DNA of 64,000 bases from a virus (lineage: Duplodnaviria; Caudoviricetes). Positions 8,683-61,035 of the stretch are shown here, one piece after another. The notes beneath the pieces are model-generated. The model saw only the letters and a list, made by a program, of their open reading frames with translations, did no database searches and was not told where the DNA came from. Made by a program: the position numbers and the translations under genes. Each line of letters begins with the position of its first letter. Position 1 is the first letter of the stretch. The stretch is from positions 96,001 to 160,000 of the IMG/VR virus record IMGVR_UViG_3300034095_001474. One strand, given 5' to 3'.

Positions 8683-8760
8683 ATATCGTGTTCAGTAAAA
8701 TCGTTTGTTCAGTCAAATCGTCTGTTCAGTGTCACTGAAGTCTTCGTTTCACTGAACACG
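8683..8760 (-). repeat. Three copies of ACTGAACA(N)ACGAT plus a GTTCAGTG/CACTGAAC hairpin
   Basis: Directly visible direct repeats downstream of the EndoVII gene. Confidence 0.6.
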
Positions 8761-9183
8761 TAAATATTTAATAGCTTCTGTTAGTATATGTTTACATTCT
8801 CGTAATTGACCAATAGCTGAATTACAATTTCGACAAAGTAACCCTCTAACTTCCATGGTTTCATGGTCATGGTCAACAAATAATCCTTTTGAACCACCTA
8901 ATTGATAATCTTTTTTACAAATAGCACATTTACCATTTTGATTATAATACATACCTTCATATTCTTCTAAAGTAATACCATATCGATATTTCAGCATTCT
9001 TTTCTTTGCTTCAAGTTTTACTTCTTCAACACTTTTAACTATTTTTGGTTTTCTTTCTTTAGGTGTATACCTAGCATTATTAGATATTGATTCGCATTTT
9101 TTACACCAAGAAAATAAACCATTTCCTCTCATTCTAAATTCACAAGAATCTTTATCTTCACCACATTTTGTACATTTTTTCAT
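8749..9183 (-). CDS. Endonuclease VII-type (HNH) homing endonuclease
   Basis: YGITLEEY...QNGKCAIC...VDHDH...VRGLLCRNCN; N-terminal Zn finger; start taken at MKKCTKC. Confidence 0.88.
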   Translation of the reverse strand: MKKCTKCGEDKDSCEFRMRGNGLFSWCKKCESISNNARYTPKERKPKIVKSVEEVKLEAKKRMLKYRYGITLEEYEGMYYNQNGKCAICKKDYQLGGSKGLFVDHDHETMEVRGLLCRNCNSAIGQLRECKHILTEAIKYLRVQ

Positions 9184-9258
9184 AATAACTTTTACTATAA
9201 ATATGTACAAAATTATAAAAGTTCAAATGTCTGAACATGGCAATATAATGAACACTAG

Positions 9259-9331
9259 TGTACCCGAAGAGATTCGAACTCTTGACCCCTCCGTTAAAAG
9301 CGGAGTGCTCTACCAACTAAGCTACGAGTAC
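9259..9331 (-). tRNA. tRNA-Lys(TTT)
   Basis: Cloverleaf, CTCCG-CT TTT AA-CGGAG. Confidence 0.92.
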
Positions 9332-9337
9332 ATATAG

Positions 9338-9411
9338 TCTCCCCGATTGGGCTCGAACCAATGACTCTCGCATTAAAAGTGCGATACTCTAGCCAACTGA
9401 GTTACGAGGAG
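9338..9411 (-). tRNA. tRNA-Lys(TTT)
   Basis: Cloverleaf, TCGCA-CT TTT AA-TGCGA. Confidence 0.9.
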
Positions 9412-9456
9412 ATATTATTTTTCCAATAACACTCGTAACCATTATGGCCGAGTGCC

Positions 9457-9498
9457 TTATTCCTTTTTCTTTCGCTTGATGTTGATAAGTGTTTTCAT
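9457..9498 (-). CDS. Lys-rich mini-leader ORF MKTLINIKRKKKE upstream of the tRNA-Lys pair
   Basis: Manual translation; followed by GCACTCG/CGAGTGT hairpin. Confidence 0.5.
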   Translation of the reverse strand: MKTLINIKRKKKE

Positions 9499-9533
9499 AA
9501 TTTAATAGTTTTTAATTTTTTTATAATAACGTC

Positions 9534-9632
9534 AGTAGGACTTAAAGGGAACCACTCATTTCTATCCCTTCATCAAACGGTAATTATCCGTTATTTGGCG
9601 TAATCCATACATTGCTGCACGTGTATCCTACT
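9534..9632 (-). ncRNA. CAGCAA-motif stem RNA (copy J)
   Basis: AGTAGGA/TCCTACT closing stem, GTGCAGCAA near the 5' end. Confidence 0.45.
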
Positions 9633-9637
9633 TATTG

Positions 9638-9709
9638 AGCGAGAAATGGGATTCGAACCCACGACCCTCTGGTTGGTAACCAGATGCTCTACCACTGAGC
9701 TATTCTCGC
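9638..9709 (-). tRNA. tRNA-Gly(ACC), A34
   Basis: GCGAGAA/TTCTCGC acceptor, U73, TCTGG-TT ACC AA-CCAGA. Confidence 0.88.
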
Positions 9710-9713
9710 ATTG

Positions 9714-9786
9714 AGCTAAAAATCAGAATCGAACTGATAACCTCTTCATTACTAGTGAAGTGCTCTACCAATTGAGCTATTTCAGC
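9714..9786 (-). tRNA. tRNA-Thr(AGT), A34
   Basis: Cloverleaf, CTTCA-CT AGT AA-TGAAG. Confidence 0.88.
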
Positions 9787-9845
9787 ATTGAGTGTGGTAG
9801 GTCAGCTGAACCTTGAGGCACCCACACTAGTTATCCCTCTTTTTG

Positions 9846-9916
9846 TGCAGAATGAGGGAGTCAAACCCTCGCCTCGGACTTGGAAGGCCCATGTGCTTTC
9901 GTAACACCTATTCTGC
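9846..9916 (-). tRNA. tRNA-Gly(TCC), somewhat degenerate
   Basis: GCAGAAT/ATTCTGC, TGGGC-CT TCC AA-GTCCG, T loop TTTGACT. Confidence 0.72.
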
Positions 9917-10008
9917 AAATTTCGAAGAAAGACAGTCACGGCCACCGCTGGAAATTCTTCTAATGTTAAAGTTTTGGCAAAATGTGGCTCGACCCAAATT
10001 AACACTTG

Positions 10009-10081
10009 AGCCTCAGATGGGACTCGAACCCATAACCTACTGATTACAAATCAGTTGCACAGCCAATCGTGCTCCAGAGGC
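10009..10081 (-). tRNA. tRNA-Thr(TGT)
   Basis: ACTGA-TT TGT AA-TCAGT. Confidence 0.88.
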
Positions 10082-10153
10082 AAATTGATTTTTATTATCC
10101 CCTTGAACTATGTCAAGTACATGGTTAAAAATCTAAATTCTACCTTAACTAAG

Positions 10154-10235
10154 TGAGGCTAGTAGGAATCGAACCTACTCAGCTTACGCAACAGATTTAC
10201 AGTCTGCCCCAGCTCTCCAACTCTGGCGTATCCCC
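10154..10235 (-). tRNA. tRNA-Tyr(GTA)
   Basis: GCAGA-CT GTA AA-TCTGT, long variable arm. Confidence 0.88.
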
Positions 10236-10242
10236 AAATAAC

Positions 10243-10302
10243 AGAATGGCATGTTGATTTTCAAATCCAAATTGAAGCTTTTTAATTTGCTGCAACCATT
10301 CT
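10243..10302 (-). ncRNA. CAGCAA-motif stem RNA (copy A) with an anticodon-like hairpin
   Basis: AGAATGG/CCATTCT stem, TTGCAGCAA, inner TTCAA-TTTGGAT-TTGAA. Confidence 0.5.
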
Positions 10303-10306
10303 TTAG

Positions 10307-10380
10307 ATGTCCGAGAGGGCTTCGAACCCCCAGATTCTCCCTTCAAAGGGGAGTGACTTTGCCAGTTTGTCTATCGGACA
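10307..10380 (-). tRNA. tRNA-Gln(TTG)
   Basis: U1-A72, CTCCC-CT TTG AA-GGGAG. Confidence 0.9.
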
Positions 10381-10437
10381 ATAATCTAATTCTACGCTCC
10401 GTTGCACACGGTCTATGAATTAGTAACAATCTGACAG

Positions 10438-10511
10438 TCGAATAAGCTGGATTCGAACCAGCGTGCTCGGCATTCCAAATGCCGCTAGATAAACCGCTCC
10501 TATACTACTCG
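10438..10511 (-). tRNA. tRNA-Pro(TGG)
   Basis: CGGCA-TT TGG AA-TGCCG. Confidence 0.86.
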
Positions 10512-10554
10512 TTAAAGTACGTTCCTATGAGTGTACGTACAACTGACCTCAAAA

Positions 10555-11208
10555 TTATTTCCTACCTTTTAACCATCCTTTATTAAGATAGGTATCTATT
10601 TCTTCTTTTTTAATTTTTTTGTTGGTACCATCTTTGGTTATCCAACATGTACCAAATTGTGAATTATTTTCACCACTTCCTTTACCTTTCATTACACTTT
10701 TAAGTAACTTTTTTGTTTCCTCAGAATGTTTCTTATTTTTAAAGTTACCTTCATTAGTCTCAAAATACTTTTTTTGAGACTTACTCATTTTATCTTTATA
10801 CTCTGGTGTTTCTTTTGCTTTAGCTATATTTAACATTCTTTGTTCTTTAGTGTTATTGAAATTGTTAATACCAGCTTCAGTGAAAACTTTTTTATGACTT
10901 TCAGACCAAATACGACCACCACCAGAACCACCCTCTTTTAAATTCATACAATTATTATCATTAATCATATCTGCGGTAATCGCTTTTATTTCAGCTTCAA
11001 TCAATAATTCTCTATTATCAAAGAACTCTAATATCTCTTTAACATGGTTTTTTTTACCATGTTTCCTTATACTATATCTTAATCTCTTTCCACTACCCAT
11101 ATAACCATCATACATGTTACATGTTGAGTGCATACCTATATAATATCTATTTGTCACCAAACAAGTAGTCTTATATAAGTAATGTATGTGCTTTTCTTTC
11201 CTTGCCAT
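10555..11208 (-). CDS. GIY-YIG homing endonuclease (Seg-like, NUMOD3 repeats) between two tRNA-Pro genes
   Basis: YLYKTT...YYIGMH, YMGSG, HSEETKK. Confidence 0.88.
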   Translation of the reverse strand: MARKEKHIHYLYKTTCLVTNRYYIGMHSTCNMYDGYMGSGKRLRYSIRKHGKKNHVKEILEFFDNRELLIEAEIKAITADMINDNNCMNLKEGGSGGGRIWSESHKKVFTEAGINNFNNTKEQRMLNIAKAKETPEYKDKMSKSQKKYFETNEGNFKNKKHSEETKKLLKSVMKGKGSGENNSQFGTCWITKDGTNKKIKKEEIDTYLNKGWLKGRK

Positions 11209-11255
11209 ATATTCTTTTTATATAAATATACTGCAAGGTACAAAAAAGTCAAGTG

Positions 11256-11328
11256 TCTAAATAGCTGGACTCGAACCAGCGGTCTCTGCGTCCCAAACGC
11301 AGCGGAATACCAACTTTCCCATATCTAG
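11256..11328 (-). tRNA. tRNA-Pro(TGG)
   Basis: CTGCG-TT TGG GA-CGCAG. Confidence 0.88.
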
Positions 11329-11422
11329 ATAATTTACATTCCTACTCTTGTATATGTACAACCCAAAATAAACCAATATGTCAAATAACTTTCCTAACTT
11401 GTAAAATGGTGTAGGTACCAAA

Positions 11423-11456
11423 TAAAAAAACCCGAAGTCATTTCTGAAATCGGGTT
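11423..11456 (-). terminator. Attenuator terminator of tRNA operon 1
   Basis: AACCCGA...TCGGGTT followed by a U tract. Confidence 0.8.
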
Positions 11457-11481
11457 TGGAATATCTTGTAATTAAGAAACT

Positions 11482-11577
11482 TTATTCTTCATTACTCAAC
11501 AGATATAACACACCCGATACACTCGGCTTTCCGCCTTGCGTTTGTTTCGGTTGATATGTGATAAATGTTGTTTTCAT
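11482..11577 (-). CDS. Leader peptide of tRNA operon 1 (K/T/Y/Q/P/G)
   Basis: MKTTFITYQPKQTQGGKPSVSGVLYLLSNEE; internal ATCGGGT complementary to the terminator 5' arm. Confidence 0.8.
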   Translation of the reverse strand: MKTTFITYQPKQTQGGKPSVSGVLYLLSNEE

Positions 11578-11649
11578 AATTTCTCTTTTTTTTAAATGGG
11601 TTTTTAGCCCGTTGTTTTAATAAATATAACCTTCTTTCTAAAAGTTATA

Positions 11650-11680
11650 CAAATGTACGAACTTTATTTTGATTTGTCAA
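11650..11680 (-). promoter_or_regulatory. Bacteroidota-type promoter for tRNA operon 1, followed by an ACTTTT-N12-ATATTTAT second promoter motif
   Basis: TTGACA...TACATTTG, i.e. TTG-N20-TAnnTTTG. Confidence 0.8.
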
Positions 11681-12113
11681 GTTTTTTCGTAACTTTTTTT
11701 TGTTTTTTTTCAATTTTATTCATTTCATCCCTTATTTCAGCAGCTTTTTCGTATTCTTCTTCTTCCAAAGCTATCGCCAAAAGTTCTTCAAGTGATTTAT
11801 TTTCTTCAAATGGTACTTCAGAAACTTCTAATTTCACCAAATCACCATCTTCTGTGTTCCATATAGACCTTTTGAAATATAAACCATCTGAATGAAATAA
11901 ATGTATTTCATGTGGTTCACCTAATTCATTGTCTATTTGATGTTGTTTATCAACATCAGTTATTTCTGAAAAGTTTTGTAGACTATCTATAATCTTTTTA
12001 GCTTTTTCTTCATAACTGTCATAATTTTTCTCTTTTCTAGGTCTCCCTCTTTTTTTAGACTTTTTATCGTTGTTATTAAAAAAAGCATCAAAAAGTTCAT
12101 CAAATGTTTCCAT
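11664..12113 (-). CDS. UVR (UvrB/C motif) domain protein
   Basis: LEELLAIALEEEEYEKAAEIRDEM. Confidence 0.7.
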   Translation of the reverse strand: METFDELFDAFFNNNDKKSKKRGRPRKEKNYDSYEEKAKKIIDSLQNFSEITDVDKQHQIDNELGEPHEIHLFHSDGLYFKRSIWNTEDGDLVKLEVSEVPFEENKSLEELLAIALEEEEYEKAAEIRDEMNKIEKKQKKVTKKLDKSK

Positions 12114-12114
12114 A

Positions 12115-12549
12115 TTATTTTTTTTTAGTTAATTTTCTGTGTGTATTCACTGCATGGTATTTAAAAGCCTTGATTGGATTTATATTGTAAAAGTACATAA
12201 ATAATATGAAAAAAGCAAATGCTAACATATACATTATTGATATTGTTAACCAATAACTCTTTGTAAGTAACGTTATTGTATAAACAACTATATCATAACC
12301 CAATGGATTTAAAAATAAAGCAATTGCAATAAATATATTTCCCCAGTTAATTTTCTTTAATTTAAAGAATAAATGTGAAAATAAGAATGATACAAATGCC
12401 AATCCATAAAGAATGTACATTGTAACCCAATAATCGTTTGTTAATTGTGTCAGTTTGAACACTAAAATGTCGAACCCAAATGGGTTTAGAAAAGTCGCTA
12501 TCACCAGACAAACTGTCCCCAGTGCTTTTCTGTTCACCACTATCATCAC
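12115..12549 (-). CDS. Membrane protein with an internal duplication
   Basis: FLNPFGFD...YW and FLNPLGYD...YW repeats. Confidence 0.65.
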   Translation of the reverse strand: MMIVVNRKALGTVCLVIATFLNPFGFDILVFKLTQLTNDYWVTMYILYGLAFVSFLFSHLFFKLKKINWGNIFIAIALFLNPLGYDIVVYTITLLTKSYWLTISIMYMLAFAFFILFMYFYNINPIKAFKYHAVNTHRKLTKKK

Positions 12550-12601
12550 TATCCATCTTGTTTTTTTTAGTTACAATCACATTATATTAATTTTATGATT
12601 C

Positions 12602-13336
12602 TTATTTTTCTTTATTTAATAAATATCCTAGTCCTACAGTTAAGTTATGAATCATAACAACTTTACTGGTGCTAGCATAATTAATAACATCTTGAATCAT
12701 AAATGATAAATGTTTACTAGACTTCAACGTCACCTTTGTGTTTCCAGTTATAATGACATTATTTGTTACCATACTAGGTTGGTAATAATACTCAGTGTAA
12801 AAACCAAATATGTTTTTTTGATAGTTAAATTTAACTCTAACTGAATGTCTTACATTTTCTTTGACACTATTATTAAAATATTCTGTATTTTGATATATAA
12901 TACCATAAGACAACGATAATTTTGAATTCTTGAACTTTTTCTTATAACCAATTCCCAACCCAAACCAATTATCATTCTGCATACTTCTCAACAATGAATA
13001 ATTGTATTGATTATTAACAAATGAAAACACATTTTTATGTTCATGACTTATATTTAATTTATGAGAAAATTCATTTTGATTTATACTTGGTGAAAAACCA
13101 ATAGTATAATTTAGTATTGAATTCAAATCTAAATTTTTAAAGTTGATGCCGTTATTTCCAATATATGTTATGTTTACATTATCTATATTGGATTGTGCTA
13201 ATACTCCAGTCAACGAATTATCAAAGTTGTATCCATTTAATATTTCTGAATTTGTAAAGAAAGCAGTGTCTACTGATAATGAATCTTGTGAAAATAAGTT
13301 AACACTAATAAACAAAAATAAAATTAATAATTTCAT
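12602..13336 (-). CDS. Outer-membrane beta-barrel protein (DUF481-like)
   Basis: Signal peptide, amphipathic strands, C-terminal LTVGLGY. Confidence 0.6.
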   Translation of the reverse strand: MKLLILFLFISVNLFSQDSLSVDTAFFTNSEILNGYNFDNSLTGVLAQSNIDNVNITYIGNNGINFKNLDLNSILNYTIGFSPSINQNEFSHKLNISHEHKNVFSFVNNQYNYSLLRSMQNDNWFGLGIGYKKKFKNSKLSLSYGIIYQNTEYFNNSVKENVRHSVRVKFNYQKNIFGFYTEYYYQPSMVTNNVIITGNTKVTLKSSKHLSFMIQDVINYASTSKVVMIHNLTVGLGYLLNKEK

Positions 13337-13929: not shown

Positions 13930-14763
13930 TTATGATTTCAATAATAATTCTTTGATTTCTGTTACAACTTGTCTATGACCGTTGCCATAAGGTTCCCAAG
14001 CCAATCCCATTGCTTTCAAGTCATAATGCTTAACAATAGTACTAACAGTTTCACCTTCTGGAAATCCAACGATATAGATACTATCAGCCAATTCCACTGC
14101 CAAACGAATATCGTGTGTTGAGAATATGATTGTGTTGTATTCATCTGCTGACAATATACGACCAAATGATTCTTTTACTTTCTCAATATTTCCAACATCC
14201 AATCCAGAGAATGGTTCATCCAAAATCATGAAATGCTTAGAAGTAAGCATTTGTTCAATGATTGCAGTTCTTTGTCGTTGACCACCAGATAATTCACCAG
14301 AGTATTTATCTTTGTGTTCCATCAAACCCCAATCTGTTAAGTACTCTTTGATAAGAGCTTCTTTCTCTGGTTTTGTAAGTGTGCTTTTACGCAATGCGTA
14401 TTGGCAAATTTGATAGACAGTCTTATGTCTAAAGATTGTGTACTTTTGGTCAACAAAACCAATATCACCTTCAGCTACTTGCTTAGCATCTGATTTGTCT
14501 TCTGTTTTGAAGTCAGTGATAAGTACTTGACCACTTGTTGGTAACAATAACCCAGTCAATGCTTTGAATAGCGTAGACTTTCCACGACCAGAACGACCAA
14601 TGAATGCTATTGTTTGACCAGTAGACTCATGTCCATCTCTAATGATGTCTTTCTCTACGATTGTAACGTCTTTAAGGATTTGTTTATCCTTTCCGTTTTT
14701 GTCTTTATACCCTACTGATAATTTATCAACGTAAAGTATCGTTTCTTCTGCTCTATAACTCAT
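13930..14763 (-). CDS. ABC transporter ATP-binding subunit (SsuB/TauB-like)
   Basis: GRSGRGKST, LSGGQRQR, LDEPFSGLD, STHD. Confidence 0.93.
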   Translation of the reverse strand: MSYRAEETILYVDKLSVGYKDKNGKDKQILKDVTIVEKDIIRDGHESTGQTIAFIGRSGRGKSTLFKALTGLLLPTSGQVLITDFKTEDKSDAKQVAEGDIGFVDQKYTIFRHKTVYQICQYALRKSTLTKPEKEALIKEYLTDWGLMEHKDKYSGELSGGQRQRTAIIEQMLTSKHFMILDEPFSGLDVGNIEKVKESFGRILSADEYNTIIFSTHDIRLAVELADSIYIVGFPEGETVSTIVKHYDLKAMGLAWEPYGNGHRQVVTEIKELLLKS

Positions 14764-20709: not shown

Positions 20710-20808
20710 TTTTCTTTTAATTTAATTGTTAATAATAAACTTTTAACAAAGGTACAAAACTTATTTCGATAAAACAAATATATTCGTAAATATTTTTAAA
20801 TTTTTTTG

Positions 20809-20879
20809 AAATTCATACTGGGCTCGAACCAGTGTCTGATGGCTTATCGCCCTCCGTGGTGCCACTCCACTAATGAATC
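20809..20879 (-). tRNA. Degenerate tRNA-like gene (Ile GAT-like, aberrant anticodon loop)
   Basis: Good acceptor, D and T arms; loop reads GGC-GATAA-GCC, no U33. Confidence 0.45.
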
Positions 20880-20976
20880 AACTATCTCCTTTTGCTCGGC
20901 AAAGCTCCATTTGATAGACGGATTATACGATATCAACTAGATTGCCGTCCAGTATCATTTGTACTCCCCAATTTTG

Positions 20977-21055
20977 TTGCGATTTGAGGAATTGAACCTC
21001 ACGGGGGTATATCTACCAATTCGTCTCATGAAAACGACCCTACACCATTATCGCA
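20977..21055 (-). ncRNA. tRNA-like RNA with a CAT anticodon hairpin placed before the D-loop-like sequence
   Basis: TGCGAT/ATCGCA stem, TCGTT-TT CAT GA-GACGA, AATTGGTAG, T arm TGAGG-TTCAATT-CCTCA. Confidence 0.45.
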
Positions 21056-21061
21056 ATTTTG

Positions 21062-21219
21062 TTCCGATGGAAGGACTCGAACCTTCATTCTCTGGTAAAG
21101 CCACCAGCGATGTATTCCTTTCTACGTTTGTTAAACCATCAGCTTCGTATTGTACACTACTAGGCTTGAAAACCAAACATTCTTTTATACCAAAAGGCAA
21201 CCAATTCATCTTCATCGGG
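21062..21219 (-). ncRNA. 158-nt tRNA-like RNA (acceptor stem + T arm, large interior)
   Basis: CCGATG/CATCGG and GAAGG-TTCGAGT-CCTTC. Confidence 0.45.
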
Positions 21220-21292
21220 TGAAGTTTATAAGGGCCGAGAGATTTACCTCCAGACTTCCACCACTTTGTTTTACTAAACAAAGAAAATAAGT

Positions 21293-21419
21293 AAAAGAGA
21301 AGCTTTGGGTCTTTCGGGGTTTCTGATTGAATGCAATGAGTAAGCTCTACCTACTATAAACCCTTTTTCGGTAATTAATACACTCTACCTTTCAATTACA
21401 GCTTAACTACTTCTCTTTA
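21293..21419 (-). ncRNA. Possible structured RNA
   Basis: AAAGAGAAG/CTTCTCTTT closing stem in a non-coding gap. Confidence 0.25.
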
Positions 21420-21421
21420 TG

Positions 21422-21528
21422 TACAGAATAAAGGATTCGAACCTTTGAGTCCCCGTGTATAGGTATCATACATACCACATTCCCAGACTTTATGTATGCT
21501 CAACCTTAAGCCACTCGGTCAATTCCAT
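21422..21528 (-). ncRNA. Class-II tRNA-like RNA with an 18-nt anticodon loop
   Basis: D arm ACC-GAGTGGCTTAA-GGT, CATACAT/ATGTATG stem, T arm AAAGG-TTCGAAT-CCTTT. Confidence 0.45.
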
Positions 21529-21615
21529 ATTTGAGGCTGAGAAGACCTCTGTGTTGTTATAAAAGAAATGTTTAACATTTCTACGTTCCTTTCTCAATGG
21601 AACAACACAATATTT

Positions 21616-21756
21616 GAGCATCAAGATTGACTTTTTTGTGCTAGCCAGTTACACCACACGCCCACACCTCTGTTAGGACATGCTGGGATTCGAACCCAGA
21701 CCCTTTGTTTTACAGACAATTTTGGTTTATTTGCTGAAACAATCTTTTGTATGCTC
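21616..21756 (-). ncRNA. CAGCAA-motif RNA (copy B) enclosing a circularly permuted tRNA (GTA anticodon hairpin)
   Basis: AAGATTG/CAATCTT carrier stem; order anticodon arm, T arm, closed acceptor CATGTCC/GGGCGTG, D arm. Confidence 0.75.
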
Positions 21757-21783
21757 TGTTTAGGTCAGAGGAACCTTCAATGT

Positions 21784-21920
21784 GGGGACAAGATTAACTT
21801 TTTTTCATACGTGCTCTACCACTGAGCTACCGACCTCTGCGAGACCAGGTGGGATTCGAACCCACGACCACGGCATTAACAAGGCTTGAATTTTTGGTTG
21901 CTGAAATAATCTTTTTACCC
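21784..21920 (-). ncRNA. CAGCAA-motif RNA (copy C) enclosing a circularly permuted tRNA (GTT-derived)
   Basis: AAGATTA/TAATCTT carrier stem; T arm GTGGG-TTCGAAT-CCCAC, acceptor CTGGTCT/AGGTCGG, D arm GCTC-AGTGGTA-GAGC. Confidence 0.78.
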
Positions 21921-21965
21921 TTGCAATATTCTACGCAGTTCCCCACGTAGAGTATTGTTTAACAA

Positions 21966-22601
21966 TTACTTGTTAGATGGTGTCACGTTAATTGACCCAA
22001 CTGAACCAGCTTTAGCTCTTTCGATACCAGCAGCTCTTTCAGCATCTAACTGTAAGTACAATTTAGTTACTTGTTCTTCTAAGAACTTGTTTTGAGTAGC
22101 TAATGTACCAATTTTTGCAGCATTTTCAGCAGCGACAGCTTTGTTCTCAGAGTGGATTAATTTAATCTCATTCTCATACTGAGTTTTCAAAGTTGCAACG
22201 ATAGTTGCTACTTCTTTTTTCACTGTAGCTTCAGTGTTAGTTCTTGCAGTGTCTAAATCAGAACGTAAAGTTGTTAATTCAGATGTTGCGATAGACGTGT
22301 AACCGTTAGATGTTAACCACTGAGTTACAACTCTTTCTTGGTTAGCTCTGAATGATAAGTCTAACTCAACGTCAGCTTGTCTACGTTTTTCAGCGTACTC
22401 AACTTCTAATGCAGAAATTGCTTCTTCTTTATTAGCTACTAACATAGTTAATTGCTCTGATTGGTCCGATAAAGTAGAAACTGTTGCAGTTGCTGCTTTT
22501 AATTCGTTTACAGCTTTAGCGATTTGTGCTGCTGCTTGTCCTAAAACTACTTCTGTGTTTGCAGAAGCTTTTCTTGCTGGTGTACTTTTTGGTGTTGCCA
22601 T
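21966..22601 (-). CDS. Ala-rich coiled-coil protein, directly upstream of the permuted tRNA-like RNAs
   Basis: 211-aa ORF with phage-like codon usage. Confidence 0.75.
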   Translation of the reverse strand: MATPKSTPARKASANTEVVLGQAAAQIAKAVNELKAATATVSTLSDQSEQLTMLVANKEEAISALEVEYAEKRRQADVELDLSFRANQERVVTQWLTSNGYTSIATSELTTLRSDLDTARTNTEATVKKEVATIVATLKTQYENEIKLIHSENKAVAAENAAKIGTLATQNKFLEEQVTKLYLQLDAERAAGIERAKAGSVGSINVTPSNK

Positions 22602-22667
22602 ACTTTTTTTTCTTTTTTTACTTTTTTTTTTATTATATTATGATTATTATATCCTTTTTCTATACTA

Positions 22668-22698
22668 CAAATATACGAACATTTTCTTTAAATGTCAA
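22668..22698 (-). promoter_or_regulatory. Bacteroidota-type promoter
   Basis: TTGACA...TATATTTG. Confidence 0.7.
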
Positions 22699-22780
22699 GT
22701 GTTTTTGTAATTATTTTTAAAAAATTTTAGTATTTAACTATTTGATTACCAATACTTTTCAATGAACTTTTTCTATACTA

Positions 22781-22811
22781 CAAATGTACGAACTCTTTTT
22801 GAATAATTCAA
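22781..22811 (-). promoter_or_regulatory. Bacteroidota-type promoter
   Basis: TTGAAT...TACATTTG. Confidence 0.65.
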
Positions 22812-22844
22812 ACTTTTTTACAATTATTTTTATTTTTTTTTTTG

Positions 22845-22938
22845 TGGAGAGATGTGGATTCGAACCACACTTTGGACGGATATTAAGTTATATCTTTCAA
22901 TAACACCACCCTTACTTTACCAATCAAGCTATCTCTCC
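22845..22938 (-). ncRNA. tRNA-like RNA with an extended anticodon arm (GAA-like loop)
   Basis: Perfect GGAGAGA/TCTCTCC acceptor, D and T arms; GGGTGG/CCGTCC plus GTTAT/ATAAC stems. Confidence 0.55.
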
Positions 22939-23211
22939 AAATTACCCTCTGAGATTACGAGGACTAGATTTTAACGGTTTTTTTCATCTTGAACAAAACT
23001 ATCTCTCAATTACGCCTATAGTTTTTAACACTACTCTTTGATTGAGCCTTTACATTAGTGTCTTACCACATAAAAATAAGTCAACCATTACGATGGGGGT
23101 AAGATGGTCTTCTTCCCGATTCCAACGAGTCCCCACTCTGGCCGTAGGACTATCTGCCAAGACGTTGTTTAAGTATCGTCATCATAACTTATGAGTACCC
23201 CTTACTCATTG

Positions 23212-23336
23212 TCGGAAGGGAAGGAATCGAACCTCCAAATAGCAGTCCCTAATAGTAGTTTTATGCTGAACATAATCTTTAAACAGATTAACTTTTTTTT
23301 ACATACTGCCGCCTTTACCAATTTGGCCACCTTCCG
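23212..23336 (-). ncRNA. tRNA with the CAGCA module inserted in a 58-nt anticodon loop (copy D)
   Basis: CGGAAGG/CCTTCCG acceptor, GCC/GGC D stem, GCAGT/ACTGC anticodon stem, insert AAAAAAAAG-TTAATCT-GTTTA-AAGATTA-TGTT-CAGCA. Confidence 0.78.
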
Positions 23337-23350
23337 AATTTAACTTTAAG

Positions 23351-23423
23351 TGGTGAGAGGTGGATTTGAACCACCGACACATGAGTTTTCAGCCCATTGC
23401 TCTACCAACTGAGCTATCTCACC
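23351..23423 (-). tRNA. tRNA-Phe(GAA)
   Basis: ATGGG-CT GAA AA-CTCAT. Confidence 0.9.
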
Positions 23424-23651: not shown

Positions 23652-23682
23652 CAAATGTACAAACAATATTTGATATATGCAA
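23652..23682 (-). promoter_or_regulatory. Bacteroidota-type promoter followed by boxA-like AGTTCATTGAA
   Basis: TTGCAT...TACATTTG. Confidence 0.65.
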
Positions 23683-32522: not shown

Positions 32523-33236
32523 TTAAGCTAATCTAAGTGGTCTTAAATAATCTCTAAGAAATGCGTTGACTGGACCACCAATCTTTTCTTCCCAATGTTT
32601 ATAGTTAGAAGCATTCTTTTCTTCCAATTGAGACAAAGCTTTCTCAGATGGTTTATGTCTACTATATGGTATTGTTTCTGGAACAAAGTCTGGATACAAC
32701 GTTCTATTGAATACCCTTTCATCAACCAAGAACACAAAAGCTGTCAATTGGTCACCCAAATCTGGTTCATGGAACCCTTGCAGATATACACCAACTTCAT
32801 GCATCGTATTCATATGAGTATTCAATGTGCCTAATCTTTCTGGGTTGTTGTTGGTAGTACCACCATTAAGAATGATAAAAGTTTTATCTTTGTCAGCCCA
32901 TTTTTTATAGATTGCGTTATGTGGATTAATATCTTCAACAGTTCTACCATAATCAACAACAGCATGTCCAAATTGGATACCTTGTTGAATTGGAGACATA
33001 TTGTAAGGTACAAGACCATACATTCTATATTCCAAATACATTTCAGTTTTACGTGGCATTGAATTAGTTTTTACACGACATAACTCAATACGTCTGTAGA
33101 ATTCTTGTACATCAATTTTCTCTTCATAATAAGAGTCAGTATAAAACGCCCAATCAGTTTCCCATGATGACATATCGATTATTCTCATGTTGGCATCTAA
33201 ACACCAATCATATCCAGTTTTAAGTATTTTTTCCAT
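32523..33236 (-). CDS. PTH2-like peptidyl-tRNA hydrolase domain protein
   Basis: QQGIQFGHA, TFIILNGG, FHEPDLGDQLTA. Confidence 0.6.
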   Translation of the reverse strand: MEKILKTGYDWCLDANMRIIDMSSWETDWAFYTDSYYEEKIDVQEFYRRIELCRVKTNSMPRKTEMYLEYRMYGLVPYNMSPIQQGIQFGHAVVDYGRTVEDINPHNAIYKKWADKDKTFIILNGGTTNNNPERLGTLNTHMNTMHEVGVYLQGFHEPDLGDQLTAFVFLVDERVFNRTLYPDFVPETIPYSRHKPSEKALSQLEEKNASNYKHWEEKIGGPVNAFLRDYLRPLRLA

Positions 33237-34543
33237 TAGTTTCCTATTTCAATTAAGTGTGATATAGTACATTGTTCTGCTCTATATATAATATATTCGT
33301 TATTTCTTAAATCAGCACCACCTTTAGCAAACACACTGTTATAACCTTCATTGTCCATTACTTTTTGTGATAATTTATAACAGCTAGAATCGTGATGCAG
33401 TATTTCTTTTTCTTTCCCTAAATGAACATCATACAATGCCAAATAAGCTTTATTGTCACCACCATTAGCCCAATAAGAACCTCTCAATGATGAGTAACCA
33501 ATTGATTTCTGTGCTTTATCAGCAAAATAGATACCATCACCAAACATTGAACCAGTATGTACTGCACCAGAAGGTCTGATAAGCAATCCACTTTGCATAA
33601 TGTTAAACCAGTTCTCATTTCTGGAACCATGCCAGTAAAGTCTTTTCTTTTTAACGTCAGCTTTCTCCAAGTTTTTATCAAATTTAACTTGTGTTTTGTT
33701 ATTTCTAACTTTGAACACTTTTTTGATTTGATTAACATTTGAACCCATCAATTTTTTAATAAGTGCTAACATTTCAGTATCGTTTTCAACTTCAACTGTT
33801 AATCCCATTTGGTCAAGGATAGTTACATCTTCAACAACTTCTTCTTCACCTTTGGCTTCAGCTTCAGCAGCTTTTTTAGCAGCATCTCTTTGTTGTTTAA
33901 TCAACTCAACTTGTCCAGCCATCGTATCCAATGCTGATTGTTCATTATCAATCAACCTTTGAGCACTAGTCAAACTACCATCATCCTCAATACCACTAAA
34001 CAAGTAGTCTTTAACATTATCCATTCTTCTTGGGATAATAGTATATAATTTCAATAACATATCATTGATATGTTTGATATCAACACCTATTTGTATCAAC
34101 CCACTAATATTGGTAATAACCTCTTGTGCAGCTCTTACTTGTTGTTCAGATACAGCTTCTTGAGTTACCTTATAGTTTCTTTGGATTGATTTGTTAGCAA
34201 ATGACATTAAATCATCAATCAATTTCTTAACAATATCATCTTTTATGTTCTCAACCTTGTTATCCAATGGTTTTGATTCATCAATAACTGGTTCAGCTAG
34301 TAAATCAGTAACATCAGTATAACCTTTTGTTTTGGATAATTTCTGTTTCAACACACTATCCCACTTGCTGCTAGGTTTATATTCTTCAACCAAAGACTTA
34401 CCAACACGTCCATATTCACATTTGATACGTCCATCTGTCAATTCCTCCATAATATAAACCTTGTTACTGTTTCCAGTACTGCCATTATCCACTGATACGT
34501 GGATAAGTTTGGCATATCTTAAACCATTTTCCTTTGTTATCAT
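33236..34543 (-). CDS. Poly(ADP-ribose) polymerase-like protein (WGR + regulatory + catalytic domains)
   Basis: NKVYIM...YGRVG; YTIIPR; WHGSR...GSMFGDGIYFAD...KSIGY...NEYIIY (H-Y-E triad). Confidence 0.9.
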   Translation of the reverse strand: MITKENGLRYAKLIHVSVDNGSTGNSNKVYIMEELTDGRIKCEYGRVGKSLVEEYKPSSKWDSVLKQKLSKTKGYTDVTDLLAEPVIDESKPLDNKVENIKDDIVKKLIDDLMSFANKSIQRNYKVTQEAVSEQQVRAAQEVITNISGLIQIGVDIKHINDMLLKLYTIIPRRMDNVKDYLFSGIEDDGSLTSAQRLIDNEQSALDTMAGQVELIKQQRDAAKKAAEAEAKGEEEVVEDVTILDQMGLTVEVENDTEMLALIKKLMGSNVNQIKKVFKVRNNKTQVKFDKNLEKADVKKKRLYWHGSRNENWFNIMQSGLLIRPSGAVHTGSMFGDGIYFADKAQKSIGYSSLRGSYWANGGDNKAYLALYDVHLGKEKEILHHDSSCYKLSQKVMDNEGYNSVFAKGGADLRNNEYIIYRAEQCTISHLIEIGN

Positions 34544-36809: not shown

Positions 36810-38207
36810 TTAAACTGTTAAACCTATTGCCGCATTTTGTATTTCAATACACTCGTCAAGTGAGTTAGCCTCTAATTTATCATCTCTGAAGTGTTTGAAT
36901 GCTGGATATAACAATGAATAAGCACCAGTACTATCAAAAGATAACCCAGAACACTTAACTTCGATAATAGTACCTAGTAATTTTTCTTGATTTTCTGTTA
37001 TTTCAACCATCAAATCTTCTTTTAACCCTTGTGGTCTTGTTTTTAACTTACCACATGATGTCTCAACCTTCAATGAACTAACAACATTTTCATTTTTAGT
37101 ACCTTTTGTACCGTAATTGAATCCAGTAATCACTAAATCTAGTGTTAATTCTAGTTTCATTTTGATTTGCCATGTCGGTTTACCATCTTTCCACTCACCA
37201 TTATATGCTTTTAAGATAGTTCCTTCATCACCACGAGCCAAAATATCTTGGAAATGTGAAATTGCTTCCTCATAATTACTAACAATTTTACCTTCAACGA
37301 TAGAAACGTGTGATGTTTCGATACTTTTAAGTGATTTATTCAACTCAATAGCACGAGCACTATATGGTATAATAGATTTTGCATCAAAATACTCATAAGT
37401 AGTGATTCTATCCCATACAGTATAGCGAATTTTAGCTAACGCTTCATAAAAGTTACCATGTTTTTCTTCAAACGCTGCTAATTTCTTCTCATTTTCTTTA
37501 TCTGTACGTTCAGATTTGTTCTTAGAGATGTCAATTATAGATGCAATGATACCATTTGACTCATAACGAGTGATACCGTCCATAGTTAACTCCCCATTCA
37601 ACACACAATCCTCAAGTTGTGCAAGTTCTTCTACGAATTTAGCACCAGTAACGATAGTAGGCTCACCTTGTCTAGACTCTAACTCAACTTCACCACCTAT
37701 AATAACAGCGTTGCAGTAACGACCATCCATTTTTACTTGTGAAATACATTTAGCACCTTTGTCAAACAATTTACGTGCTTTCTTTTCATCAAAAGATACT
37801 GCACCCATGTATGGAGTTTCTTCAATCAACCCTTTGAACACTTTGTTCATAAAAGTTGTACCCATACCAATCTTGCAATCTTTATCGATAATACGTTCAA
37901 CGATATATGCATCATCTGGTTCTAAACTAGCCAATACATCACGTAATAGATTTGATGCATCAGCACCAGTTACTACTCTGTTGGCAATTGAACGTAATTG
38001 TTCAACAGCATATACTAAATCATTGGTTTGCTCTGTATTTCTAGTATACTCTGGAATACGTTTTATAAAAAACTTAATTCGTTTAGAGTTAGCCATATAC
38101 AATACAACCTCTAACAGTTCGTTGTCTACATACTTTCTAAGAACATCCATCTTAGCATTGTTACCACCAGTGGTAGCAATTTCGTCAAAAATTTCTTTAA
38201 TTTTCAT
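36810..38207 (-). CDS. ATP-dependent DNA ligase
   Basis: VKMDGRY, LNGEL, EGTILK, IKMK, OB fold with LLYPAF. Confidence 0.92.
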   Translation of the reverse strand: MKIKEIFDEIATTGGNNAKMDVLRKYVDNELLEVVLYMANSKRIKFFIKRIPEYTRNTEQTNDLVYAVEQLRSIANRVVTGADASNLLRDVLASLEPDDAYIVERIIDKDCKIGMGTTFMNKVFKGLIEETPYMGAVSFDEKKARKLFDKGAKCISQVKMDGRYCNAVIIGGEVELESRQGEPTIVTGAKFVEELAQLEDCVLNGELTMDGITRYESNGIIASIIDISKNKSERTDKENEKKLAAFEEKHGNFYEALAKIRYTVWDRITTYEYFDAKSIIPYSARAIELNKSLKSIETSHVSIVEGKIVSNYEEAISHFQDILARGDEGTILKAYNGEWKDGKPTWQIKMKLELTLDLVITGFNYGTKGTKNENVVSSLKVETSCGKLKTRPQGLKEDLMVEITENQEKLLGTIIEVKCSGLSFDSTGAYSLLYPAFKHFRDDKLEANSLDECIEIQNAAIGLTV

Positions 38208-58375: not shown

Positions 58376-58406
58376 CAAATGTACGAACATTATTTTGATT
58401 ATGCAA
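58376..58406 (-). promoter_or_regulatory. Bacteroidota-type promoter for the tmRNA
   Basis: TTGCAT...TACATTTG; boxA-like CGTTCTTT before the tmRNA. Confidence 0.7.
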
Positions 58407-60978: not shown

Positions 60979-61035
60979 GCTAAATATTTATTTTTTTACA
61001 AATGTACTTAATATTATAATAAAAAACAACTTTTT

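Follow-up and report, generated by a model that had tools for sequence, protein, structure and literature searches.

A leader with codons matched to the tRNA array behind it is a probable ribosome-mediated attenuator in a giant lake-water phage

The 64,000-nt stretch of DNA analysed here (the window; positions 96,001 to 160,000 of the IMG/VR record IMGVR_UViG_3300034095_001474) comes from an uncultured giant lake-water phage, whose own DNA was placed by short-word matching in lake-water metagenomes from many studies. At 11680-11424 on its minus strand, the window contains an element that is very likely a ribosome-mediated leader-peptide transcription attenuator, which opens the tRNA array behind it (array A) upon slow decoding of the cognate codons. 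The phage probably makes the array A tRNAs only when ribosomes read those codons slowly. A preliminary description of this DNA had already proposed an attenuator over array A, and this proposal gains support from four array-matched cassettes, an antiterminator covarying in 12 orthologues, the preference of leaders for their own terminator arms, a relative with regrouped tRNAs and a ribosome-position model. To our knowledge, the regulation of phage tRNA genes, and the reason why giant phages carry near-complete tRNA sets, are essentially unknown. A codon-matched attenuator would show on-demand tRNA synthesis responding to decoding speed, and such synthesis would tie phage tRNA arrays to host tRNA depletion and codon-usage differences.

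The minus strand carries all the long open reading frames (ORFs) and at least 34 tRNA genes of the window (G+C, 32%), and all cassette features of the window given below lie on this strand. Cassette A begins with a promoter (11680-11650) consisting of TTGACA (11680-11675), 17 nt and TACATTTG (11657-11650), the last element fitting the Bacteroidota TAnnTTTG -7 motif; transcription would start at about 11645. The following 72-nt 5' untranslated region (UTR; 11649-11578) includes a block common to the cassettes (AACTTTTAGAAA...TATATTTA), which is kept in cassettes A-D and in IMG/VR relatives, a small hairpin of GGG (11610-11608) and CCC (11600-11598), and an A-rich tract with no Shine-Dalgarno sequence upstream of the leader ATG. 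The leader ORF (11577-11482; MKTTFITYQPKQTQGGKPSVSGVLYLLSNEE) comprises 31 codons plus TAA, and its frame and composition are kept in orthologues. The intrinsic terminator (11457-11424) has a 5' arm AAACCCGA (11457-11450; region 3) and a 3' arm (11435-11428; region 4; TCGGGTTT as DNA, listed also as UCGGGUUU), which form an 8-bp GC-rich stem followed by U7 (11430-11424), with a stability of -13.8 kcal/mol. Array A starts 95 bases past the T-run and was called by ARAGORN at 11328-9258 as Pro(UGG), an ORF, Pro(UGG), Gln(UUG), Tyr(GUA), Thr(UGU), Gly(UCC), Thr(AGU), Gly(ACC), Lys(UUU) and Lys(UUU), which bears out the order Pro-Pro-Gln-Tyr-Thr-Gly-Thr-Gly-Lys-Lys described previously.

From these parts we infer leader translation, ribosome stalling, a kinetic choice between RNA structures and the quantity that is sensed. 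The 31-codon leader would be translated behind the advancing polymerase that started at 11680-11650. When aminoacyl-tRNA for Lys, Thr, Tyr, Gln, Pro or Gly is scarce, the ribosome would stall at codons 2 to about 16 and cover region 1 (ACAUAUCAACCGA; codons 7-11, 11559-11547), which pairs with region 2 in the minimum-free-energy fold. The stall would leave region 2, the 5' strand of the antiterminator (11518-11508; AUCGGGU at 11518-11512 plus GUGU), free to pair with region 3 (ACCCGAU, 11455-11449), enclosing within the 2:3 helix a hairpin (H2, 11495-11468) that includes the leader stop codon. This pairing would block the terminator hairpin, and the ten-tRNA array would be transcribed. Upon fast decoding, the ribosome would overrun region 2, or region 1 would re-pair with region 2; region 3 would then pair with region 4, and transcription would stop at the U-run (11430-11424). 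In ribosome-free RNA, region 1 is a possible anti-antiterminator and pause hairpin. As the array A tRNAs themselves decode the control codons, the circuit would regulate tRNA supply by negative feedback, and since the output is tRNA, we favour tRNA supply over amino-acid supply as the likely signal.

The codon content of the leader corresponds closely to array A. Control codons 2-18 (11574-11524) read K T T F I T Y Q P K Q T Q G G K P, in which 15 of the 17 encode K, T, Y, Q, P or G, the count given previously and confirmed on the ORF at 11577-11482. All 15 are readable by array A anticodons under standard wobble rules. Among the 49,121 stop-free 17-codon segments in the six frames of the whole window, two reach 15 of 17 for this set of amino acids, and leader A stands at this tied maximum.

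Further analysis of the window revealed four paralogous cassettes, each with its own array. The promoter pattern TTGACAAAT-N(8-12)-CGTACATTTG occurs four times against none expected and always fronts a cassette, being followed each time by a related 5' UTR, an ORF beginning M-K/R-T, a terminator and a tRNA array. Cassette A, starting at 11680, precedes an array for PQYTGK; cassette B (25389-25140; leader MKTLTNIFDFAFNFAAEADE...) an array for FEDA; cassette C (28877-28658; leader MKTINTLHVLLLCLLAVDGVGYVC) an array for CVL; and cassette D (49098-48862; leader MRTINIHMISISNWRRNSHHN...) an array for HWSIMNR. These amino-acid sets are disjoint and their union comprises all 20; they include three tRNAs called by Rfam only, namely Asp-GUC (24657-24587), a CAU tRNA (47368-47296) and an atypical GAU tRNA (48080-48000). 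With all codons after the start counted in the leader-by-array tables, structure-encoding tails included, the table of the window gave a chi-square p of 2.5e-11, and the true assignment of leaders to arrays was the unique best of 24. Codon families correspond as well: leader D has AGA and CGC for tRNA-Arg with UCU and ACG anticodons and UCG and AGU for tRNA-Ser with UGA and GCU, and leader C has UUA and CUU for tRNA-Leu with UAA and UAG.

Many uncultured phages known from metagenomes of lakes and peat have the same system, as does the public record LR756500.1. In IMG/VR, searches with the promoter pattern and with a 17-mer of the A leader recovered about 20 true loci on contigs of up to at least 206 kb, and an 86-kb contig contains all four cassette types. 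B leaders of three lineages read FDFAFNFAAEADE in the window, FEFDFFAAEADF in the 86-kb contig and FDFAFEAFAEADF at locus L045; their composition is kept and their residue order is shuffled, which fits selection on codon content and not on the peptide. LR756500.1, a distantly related uncultured 462-kb phage with 67% identity across a 614-aa OmpA-domain protein, is the closest GenBank record. The promoter pattern TACATTTG..ATGARAAC has no match in it, and its cassettes were identified by inspecting the sequence upstream of its tRNAs. Its tRNAs are grouped otherwise than in the window, and the leader compositions track the new groups. Leader MKAISVHIIHIWEHLLEEV... (ATG at 118985, minus strand) is followed by His, Glu, Val, Trp and Leu(UAG), leader MLQRFDMHMIAKFSGK... 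(95104) by tmRNA, Lys, Met, Phe and Met, leader MINLVNIIDNRRDDNNII... (87496) by Asn, Asp, Arg(UCU) and a CAU tRNA, and leader MKTLSTYPLGQAQTLGTPPITG (65819) by Ala, Leu(UAA), Pro, Tyr, Gln, Gly, Thr and Gly. Compared with window cassette A, the last block has lost Lys and gained Ala and Leu(UAA), and its leader has lost most K codons, keeping the conserved second codon as the one left, and has gained A and three UUA codons. The leader-by-array table of LR756500.1 gave a chi-square p of 1e-8, and again the true assignment was the unique best of 24.

These comparisons bear on the possibility that the resemblance of ORF and array is a coincidence, the ORF being untranslated or specifying a small functional peptide. 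The peptide is indeed conserved among close relatives, and translation of the ORF is predicted from sequence only. However, such a coincidence would need to have arisen in four cassettes and again in the independent, regrouped cassettes of LR756500.1 (p from 1e-8 to 1e-14), and a functional peptide would be expected to keep its residue order, not to have it shuffled across lineages with only the composition kept. We regard this explanation as highly improbable.

The alternative pairings of an attenuator are also present and conserved. In each of 14 cassettes, an intrinsic terminator lies 20-50 nt past the leader stop, and its 5' arm has a complement within the leader at codons ~18-28. For cassette A, ATCGGGT (codons 20-22, 11518-11512) had been described as a perfect complement of ACCCGAT, and this holds, ACCCGAT being located at 11455-11449. 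Leaders pair more strongly with their own arms (mean, -13.2 kcal/mol) than with arms of non-orthologous cassettes (-8.4; Mann-Whitney p = 1e-5), and the own leader was the best partner of the terminator arm in 8 of 12 cases. Covariation was counted in 12 A-type orthologues aligned with MAFFT. The 7-bp antiterminator helix (11518-11512 with 11455-11449) is paired in 85.7% of cells versus 17-54% when the partner was slid by 1-3 columns; both sides changed in four of the seven pairs, and none of 500 shuffles reached the observed pairing. Leader AUCGGGU and arm ACCCGAU of the window correspond to ACUGGGC and GCCCAGU at locus L004, AUGGACUGGG and CCCAGUUCAU at L037, CGUGGCGGGUUU and GAACCCGACCACG at L044, and GGCGGGUUU and AAACCCGUC at L045. 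Across the 12 orthologues, the terminator helix is paired in 91.7% of cells, the support for the antiterminator being equally good, and the region 1:2 pairing holds in 88% of cells versus 22-51% in slid controls, a value that carries no information on covariation, since the orthologues were retrieved with region 1 itself. In addition, the leader region folds more stably than its shuffles (z = -4.5).

The covariation also bears on a reading in which the leader is translated and monitors decoding speed but acts through Rho access, RNase processing or precursor stability, the terminator being leaky punctuation. Rho would have access to the long untranslated array, relatives have a boxA-like motif past the terminator, and thermodynamic modelling alone predicts no switching, all of which would suit this reading. 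Yet it gives no role to the joint changes of the leader segment and the terminator 5' arm, nor to the precise placement of this segment under a ribosome moving off the control codons, and we consider it unlikely.

The position of the ribosome was then related to the fold. The equilibrium fold of the full leader with a masked ribosome was rejected as a test, since the decision would be kinetic, and a truncated-transcript model was used instead, in which the RNA was cut before the terminator 3' arm and 28 nt were masked per ribosome at each A-site codon. In this model, the 5' arm is sequestered (P ~0.6-0.8) with the A site on codons 2 to ~16 and released (0.1-0.3) with the ribosome over codons ~17-28, and the switch point falls at the end of the control-codon run in 14 of 14 cassettes. 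The model is consistent with the earlier suggestion that a stalled ribosome would leave ATCGGGT free: the segment is predicted to be free at codons 2 to ~16 and covered from codon 17. The two states of cassette A are near-balanced, at -32.2 kcal/mol for the antiterminator and -30.5 kcal/mol with regions 1 and 2 paired and the arm free, which is what a switch requires.

Several points weigh against attenuation at cassette A. When the complete terminator is present, equilibrium folding favours the terminator at nearly all ribosome positions (P 0.3-0.94), and the switch must therefore be kinetic and co-transcriptional; the proposed kinetic choice between structures is argued by analogy with trp-type attenuators. 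In the truncated model, RNA free of ribosomes likewise forms the antiterminator and sequesters the arm (0.70), so an untranslated leader might read through, unlike trp. The stop codon of cassette A lies 28 nt past region 2, and a terminating ribosome would therefore sit between regions 2 and 3 without covering ATCGGGT. Taken alone, the duplex of cassette A gave a weak shuffle test (p ~0.1), and that of cassette B, whose antiterminator is weak at -8.9 kcal/mol, gave p = 0.42. Despite the weak single-cassette test, we accept the leader:arm pairing because the arm and the leader segment co-change in orthologues. Two of the 17 control codons (Phe and Ile) are non-cognate to array A, and the leaders at L037 and L045 retain GG, yet no Gly tRNA was found in the array stretch covered; Gly tRNAs are present at the array end of the close relative L087. 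The host, and hence its translation and termination machinery, is deduced from the promoter type alone. Finally, none of the runs listed as containing a 4-kb stretch is recorded as RNA, an RNA-restricted search returned small shares only, and the contigs of four runs gave scattered matches, mostly to tRNAs of other organisms, that indicate no transcript starts, ends or levels.

A further alternative concerns the spacer between the terminator and the first tRNA (11415-11373), which consists of a hairpin of CCTA (11415-11412) and TAGG (11396-11393) followed by GTTATTTGACATATTGG (11389-11373), a boxA-like candidate. The terminator might end a short constitutive transcript or read-through from the gene at 12113-11664, with the array having its own weak promoter in the spacer and the ORF and the complementarity being non-regulatory. 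TTGACA at 11384-11379, followed after 20 nt by TACATATA, resembles the cassette promoter in degenerate form, a good second TACATTTG lies between the terminator and tRNA-Phe of cassette B, and the preference of equilibrium folds for the terminator would fit. However, the spacer element lacks the TTTG of TAnnTTTG and has the wrong spacing, and TACATATA is missing in the orthologues L004 and L041, where the tRNA begins ~20 nt past the motif. Indeed, only one TAnnTTTG motif was found upstream of array A, at 11657-11650, and none between the terminator and the first tRNA-Pro, which argues against a bypass of the terminator by a promoter of this type. In cassette C, tRNA-Cys directly follows the U-run with no spacer, so a second promoter is not general and read-through would be the only route to the tRNAs of that cassette. 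A spacer promoter would moreover leave unexplained the codon match in four cassettes and three lineages and the covariation of leader and arm; we judge this alternative to be quite unlikely, and attenuation remains our preferred reading of cassette A.

The preliminary description had also noted a boxA-like sequence after the terminator, which stands in part. GTTATTTGACATATTGG is present between the terminator and the first tRNA-Pro, preceded by the CCTA/TAGG hairpin, and orthologues have the hairpin followed by GTTCTTTGACA at the same place, with 10 of 11 positions fitting the boxA consensus GYTCTTTAANA (PMC5725501). The motif lies beyond the interval 11423-11680 given in that description, and the window copy GTTATTTGACA, a degenerate copy of the motif in the orthologues, fits the consensus at 9 of 11 positions. 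C4 is among its mismatches; in E. coli, SuhB association was lost in a double mutant altered at this position and at T6 (C4T/T6C; PMC5725501). On the gene strand of LR756500.1, GTTCTTTG[AG][AC]A occurs five times versus 0.09 expected; four of the five copies fall after a leader terminator and before the first tRNA or tmRNA, in four of four cassettes. GTTCTTTGAAA with two mismatches had 63 matches in the whole window versus 57 expected, which is no enrichment; the boxA-like motif is absent from window cassettes C and D, and a literature search with the boxA sequence string gave irrelevant matches only. Since GTTCTTTGACA recurs after the hairpin in orthologues and the motif is in excess at the cassettes of LR756500.1, a Nus-type anti-Rho module for the untranslated array is a reasonable lead rather than a finding. 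A weak secondary promoter is an alternative reading of this element.

Cassette A resembles the multivalent attenuators of enterobacteria (ilvGMEDA for Ile/Leu/Val and thr for Thr/Ile, together with trpL, hisL, leuL and pheL) in having a short leader with clustered codons, an intrinsic terminator, an exclusive antiterminator that uses the terminator 5' arm and, by prediction, an upstream region 1:2 hairpin, as well as in the ~70 nt from leader end to terminator end and in the proposed sensing of several amino acids by one leader. In contrast to these systems, its targets would be tRNA genes and not biosynthetic enzymes, and the class of molecule sensed would be the product; leader A would sense six amino acids and the four leaders would span all 20; and the cassette belongs to a phage, has a promoter of the Bacteroidota type and lacks a Shine-Dalgarno sequence. 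The codon-rich ORF, the intrinsic terminator and the suitably placed exclusive antiterminator by which leader-peptide attenuators are recognised are all apparent from the sequence, whereas the downstream genes, which in this class make or charge tRNA with the sensed amino acid, are here the tRNAs themselves, and this is the novel point. Searches with the Rfam leader families (Trp_leader, His_leader, Thr_leader, Leu_leader and others) gave nothing at the gathering threshold, the best being Trp_leader with 18.7 bits against a cut-off of 41 (E = 0.25).

In E. coli, pheST is an example of a translation-apparatus component under leader-peptide attenuation. As with pheST, the predicted target of the phage cassette belongs to translation rather than to a biosynthetic pathway, but pheST involves a synthetase and one amino acid, and the phage cassette involves tRNAs themselves and multivalent sensing. 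T-box riboswitches likewise couple the state of a specific tRNA to a choice between terminator and antiterminator before translation-related genes; in contrast, the T-box binds uncharged tRNA directly and needs no translation, whereas the phage signal would be the codons of an in-frame ORF. No specifier loop or T-box sequence was found in the cassette, and no T-box match was obtained from Rfam at the gathering threshold or at E <= 10. BoxA/Nus antitermination, as in rrn leaders and with boxA upstream of suhB and CRISPR arrays, is comparable in that relatives have GTTCTTTG(A/G)(A/C)A after the hairpin, just upstream of a long untranslated RNA array; it differs in that the window copy GTTATTTGACA misses C4, cassettes C and D have no such motif and NusB/NusE binding is putative. 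These comparisons support the view that the element is functionally a multivalent leader-peptide attenuator of the trp/ilv type outside the Rfam families, and not a T-box.

Full-text literature searches returned no account of tRNA genes controlled by a leader-peptide attenuator, whether in phages or in cells. What is new is the combination of tRNA genes as the regulated product, a sensor reading the codons which those tRNAs serve, and four sensors covering the whole code. If this is true, it would be the first case of tRNA genes under ribosome-mediated attenuation and a compact natural design for codon-specific translation sensors, with natural parts of ~230 nt that report the decoding of chosen codon sets. 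It would also extend textbook trp-type attenuation to a new class of target, whose products act directly back on their own sensor. More broadly, and with less assurance, we think it rather likely that giant phages of Bacteroidota-type hosts tune their own tRNA supply, with four or five leader sensors covering the 20 amino acids, each gauging the real-time decoding of the codons of its own block and opening this block on demand, and with a Nus/boxA-type module guarding the untranslated array. The demand could arise from host tRNAs that are depleted or cleaved during infection, or that are ill-suited to phage codon usage.

The TAnnTTTG -7 motif and the absence of Shine-Dalgarno sequences are established features of Bacteroidota, and the promoter type of the cassettes, together with the lack of Shine-Dalgarno sequences, therefore suggests a Bacteroidota-type host. 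A blastn search of 9000-13000 against GenBank phages for cultured relatives gave tRNA-level matches only, LR756500.1 being the sole real relative. A scan of genome contigs with the A-leader 17-mer gave 49 loci, of which one (L087) is real. L087 is PLXT01000115.1, a 170-kb contig in a metagenome-assembled genome of 'Methanobacterium sp.', with an A-type cassette MTTYTTYQPKQKPQGGTPLNGLGMLYFNDL and an array of Pro, Pro, Gln, Gln, Gln, Thr, Lys, Lys, Gly and Gly after the leader; it is evidently a giant-phage contig mis-binned into an archaeal genome. An ORF of ~85 codons ending SENSSLNSDSSSSLLYS lies directly before tRNA-Ser(GCU) and tRNA-Ser(UGA) both in LR756500.1 (~100540-100290, minus strand) and in L025, with no terminator seen, and may be a different, longer form of codon-matched leader.

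Within array A, an ORF at 10555-11208 separates the tRNA-Pro(UGG) copies at 11328-11255 and 10511-10437. It appears GIY-YIG-like by eye and has no Pfam match, and one public-run contig fuses 10548 to 11255, representing a variant without this ORF and one Pro copy. The ORF thus looks like a mobile homing-endonuclease insertion. A gene with a Pfam match to endonuclease VII lies directly 3' of array A. Near this array and beyond, on the minus strand, Pfam matches comprise a PARP catalytic domain, an ATP-dependent DNA ligase, an ABC-transporter ATPase and endonuclease VII, with coordinates listed as 33236-34543, 36810-38207, 13930-14763 and 8749-9210.

The window also encodes a tmRNA and a tRNA with a CUA anticodon (55095-55024). 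The stop codon of leader C is TAG (28724-28722), and its suppression would add Cys-Leu-Thr codons to this leader. Eight further promoters of the class TTG-N-GTACATTTG with no leader ORF occur on the gene strand, at 61029, 58406, 57004, 56292, 38258, 23897, 23682 and 22811; the one at 58406 lies directly upstream of the tmRNA, which is also preceded by ACGTTCTTTAATTTT, a sequence resembling boxA, and the one at 23682 lies upstream of tRNA-Phe at 23423. The tRNA-like gene at 48000-48080 (minus strand; anticodon GAU) is atypical, having a poor D arm and a long variable region. Finally, a GC-richer structured stretch at 20800-23340 on the minus strand has several Rfam and ARAGORN calls with introns or odd anticodons, including Tyr-AUA at 20808 and intron-bearing calls at 21421, 22844 and 23211.

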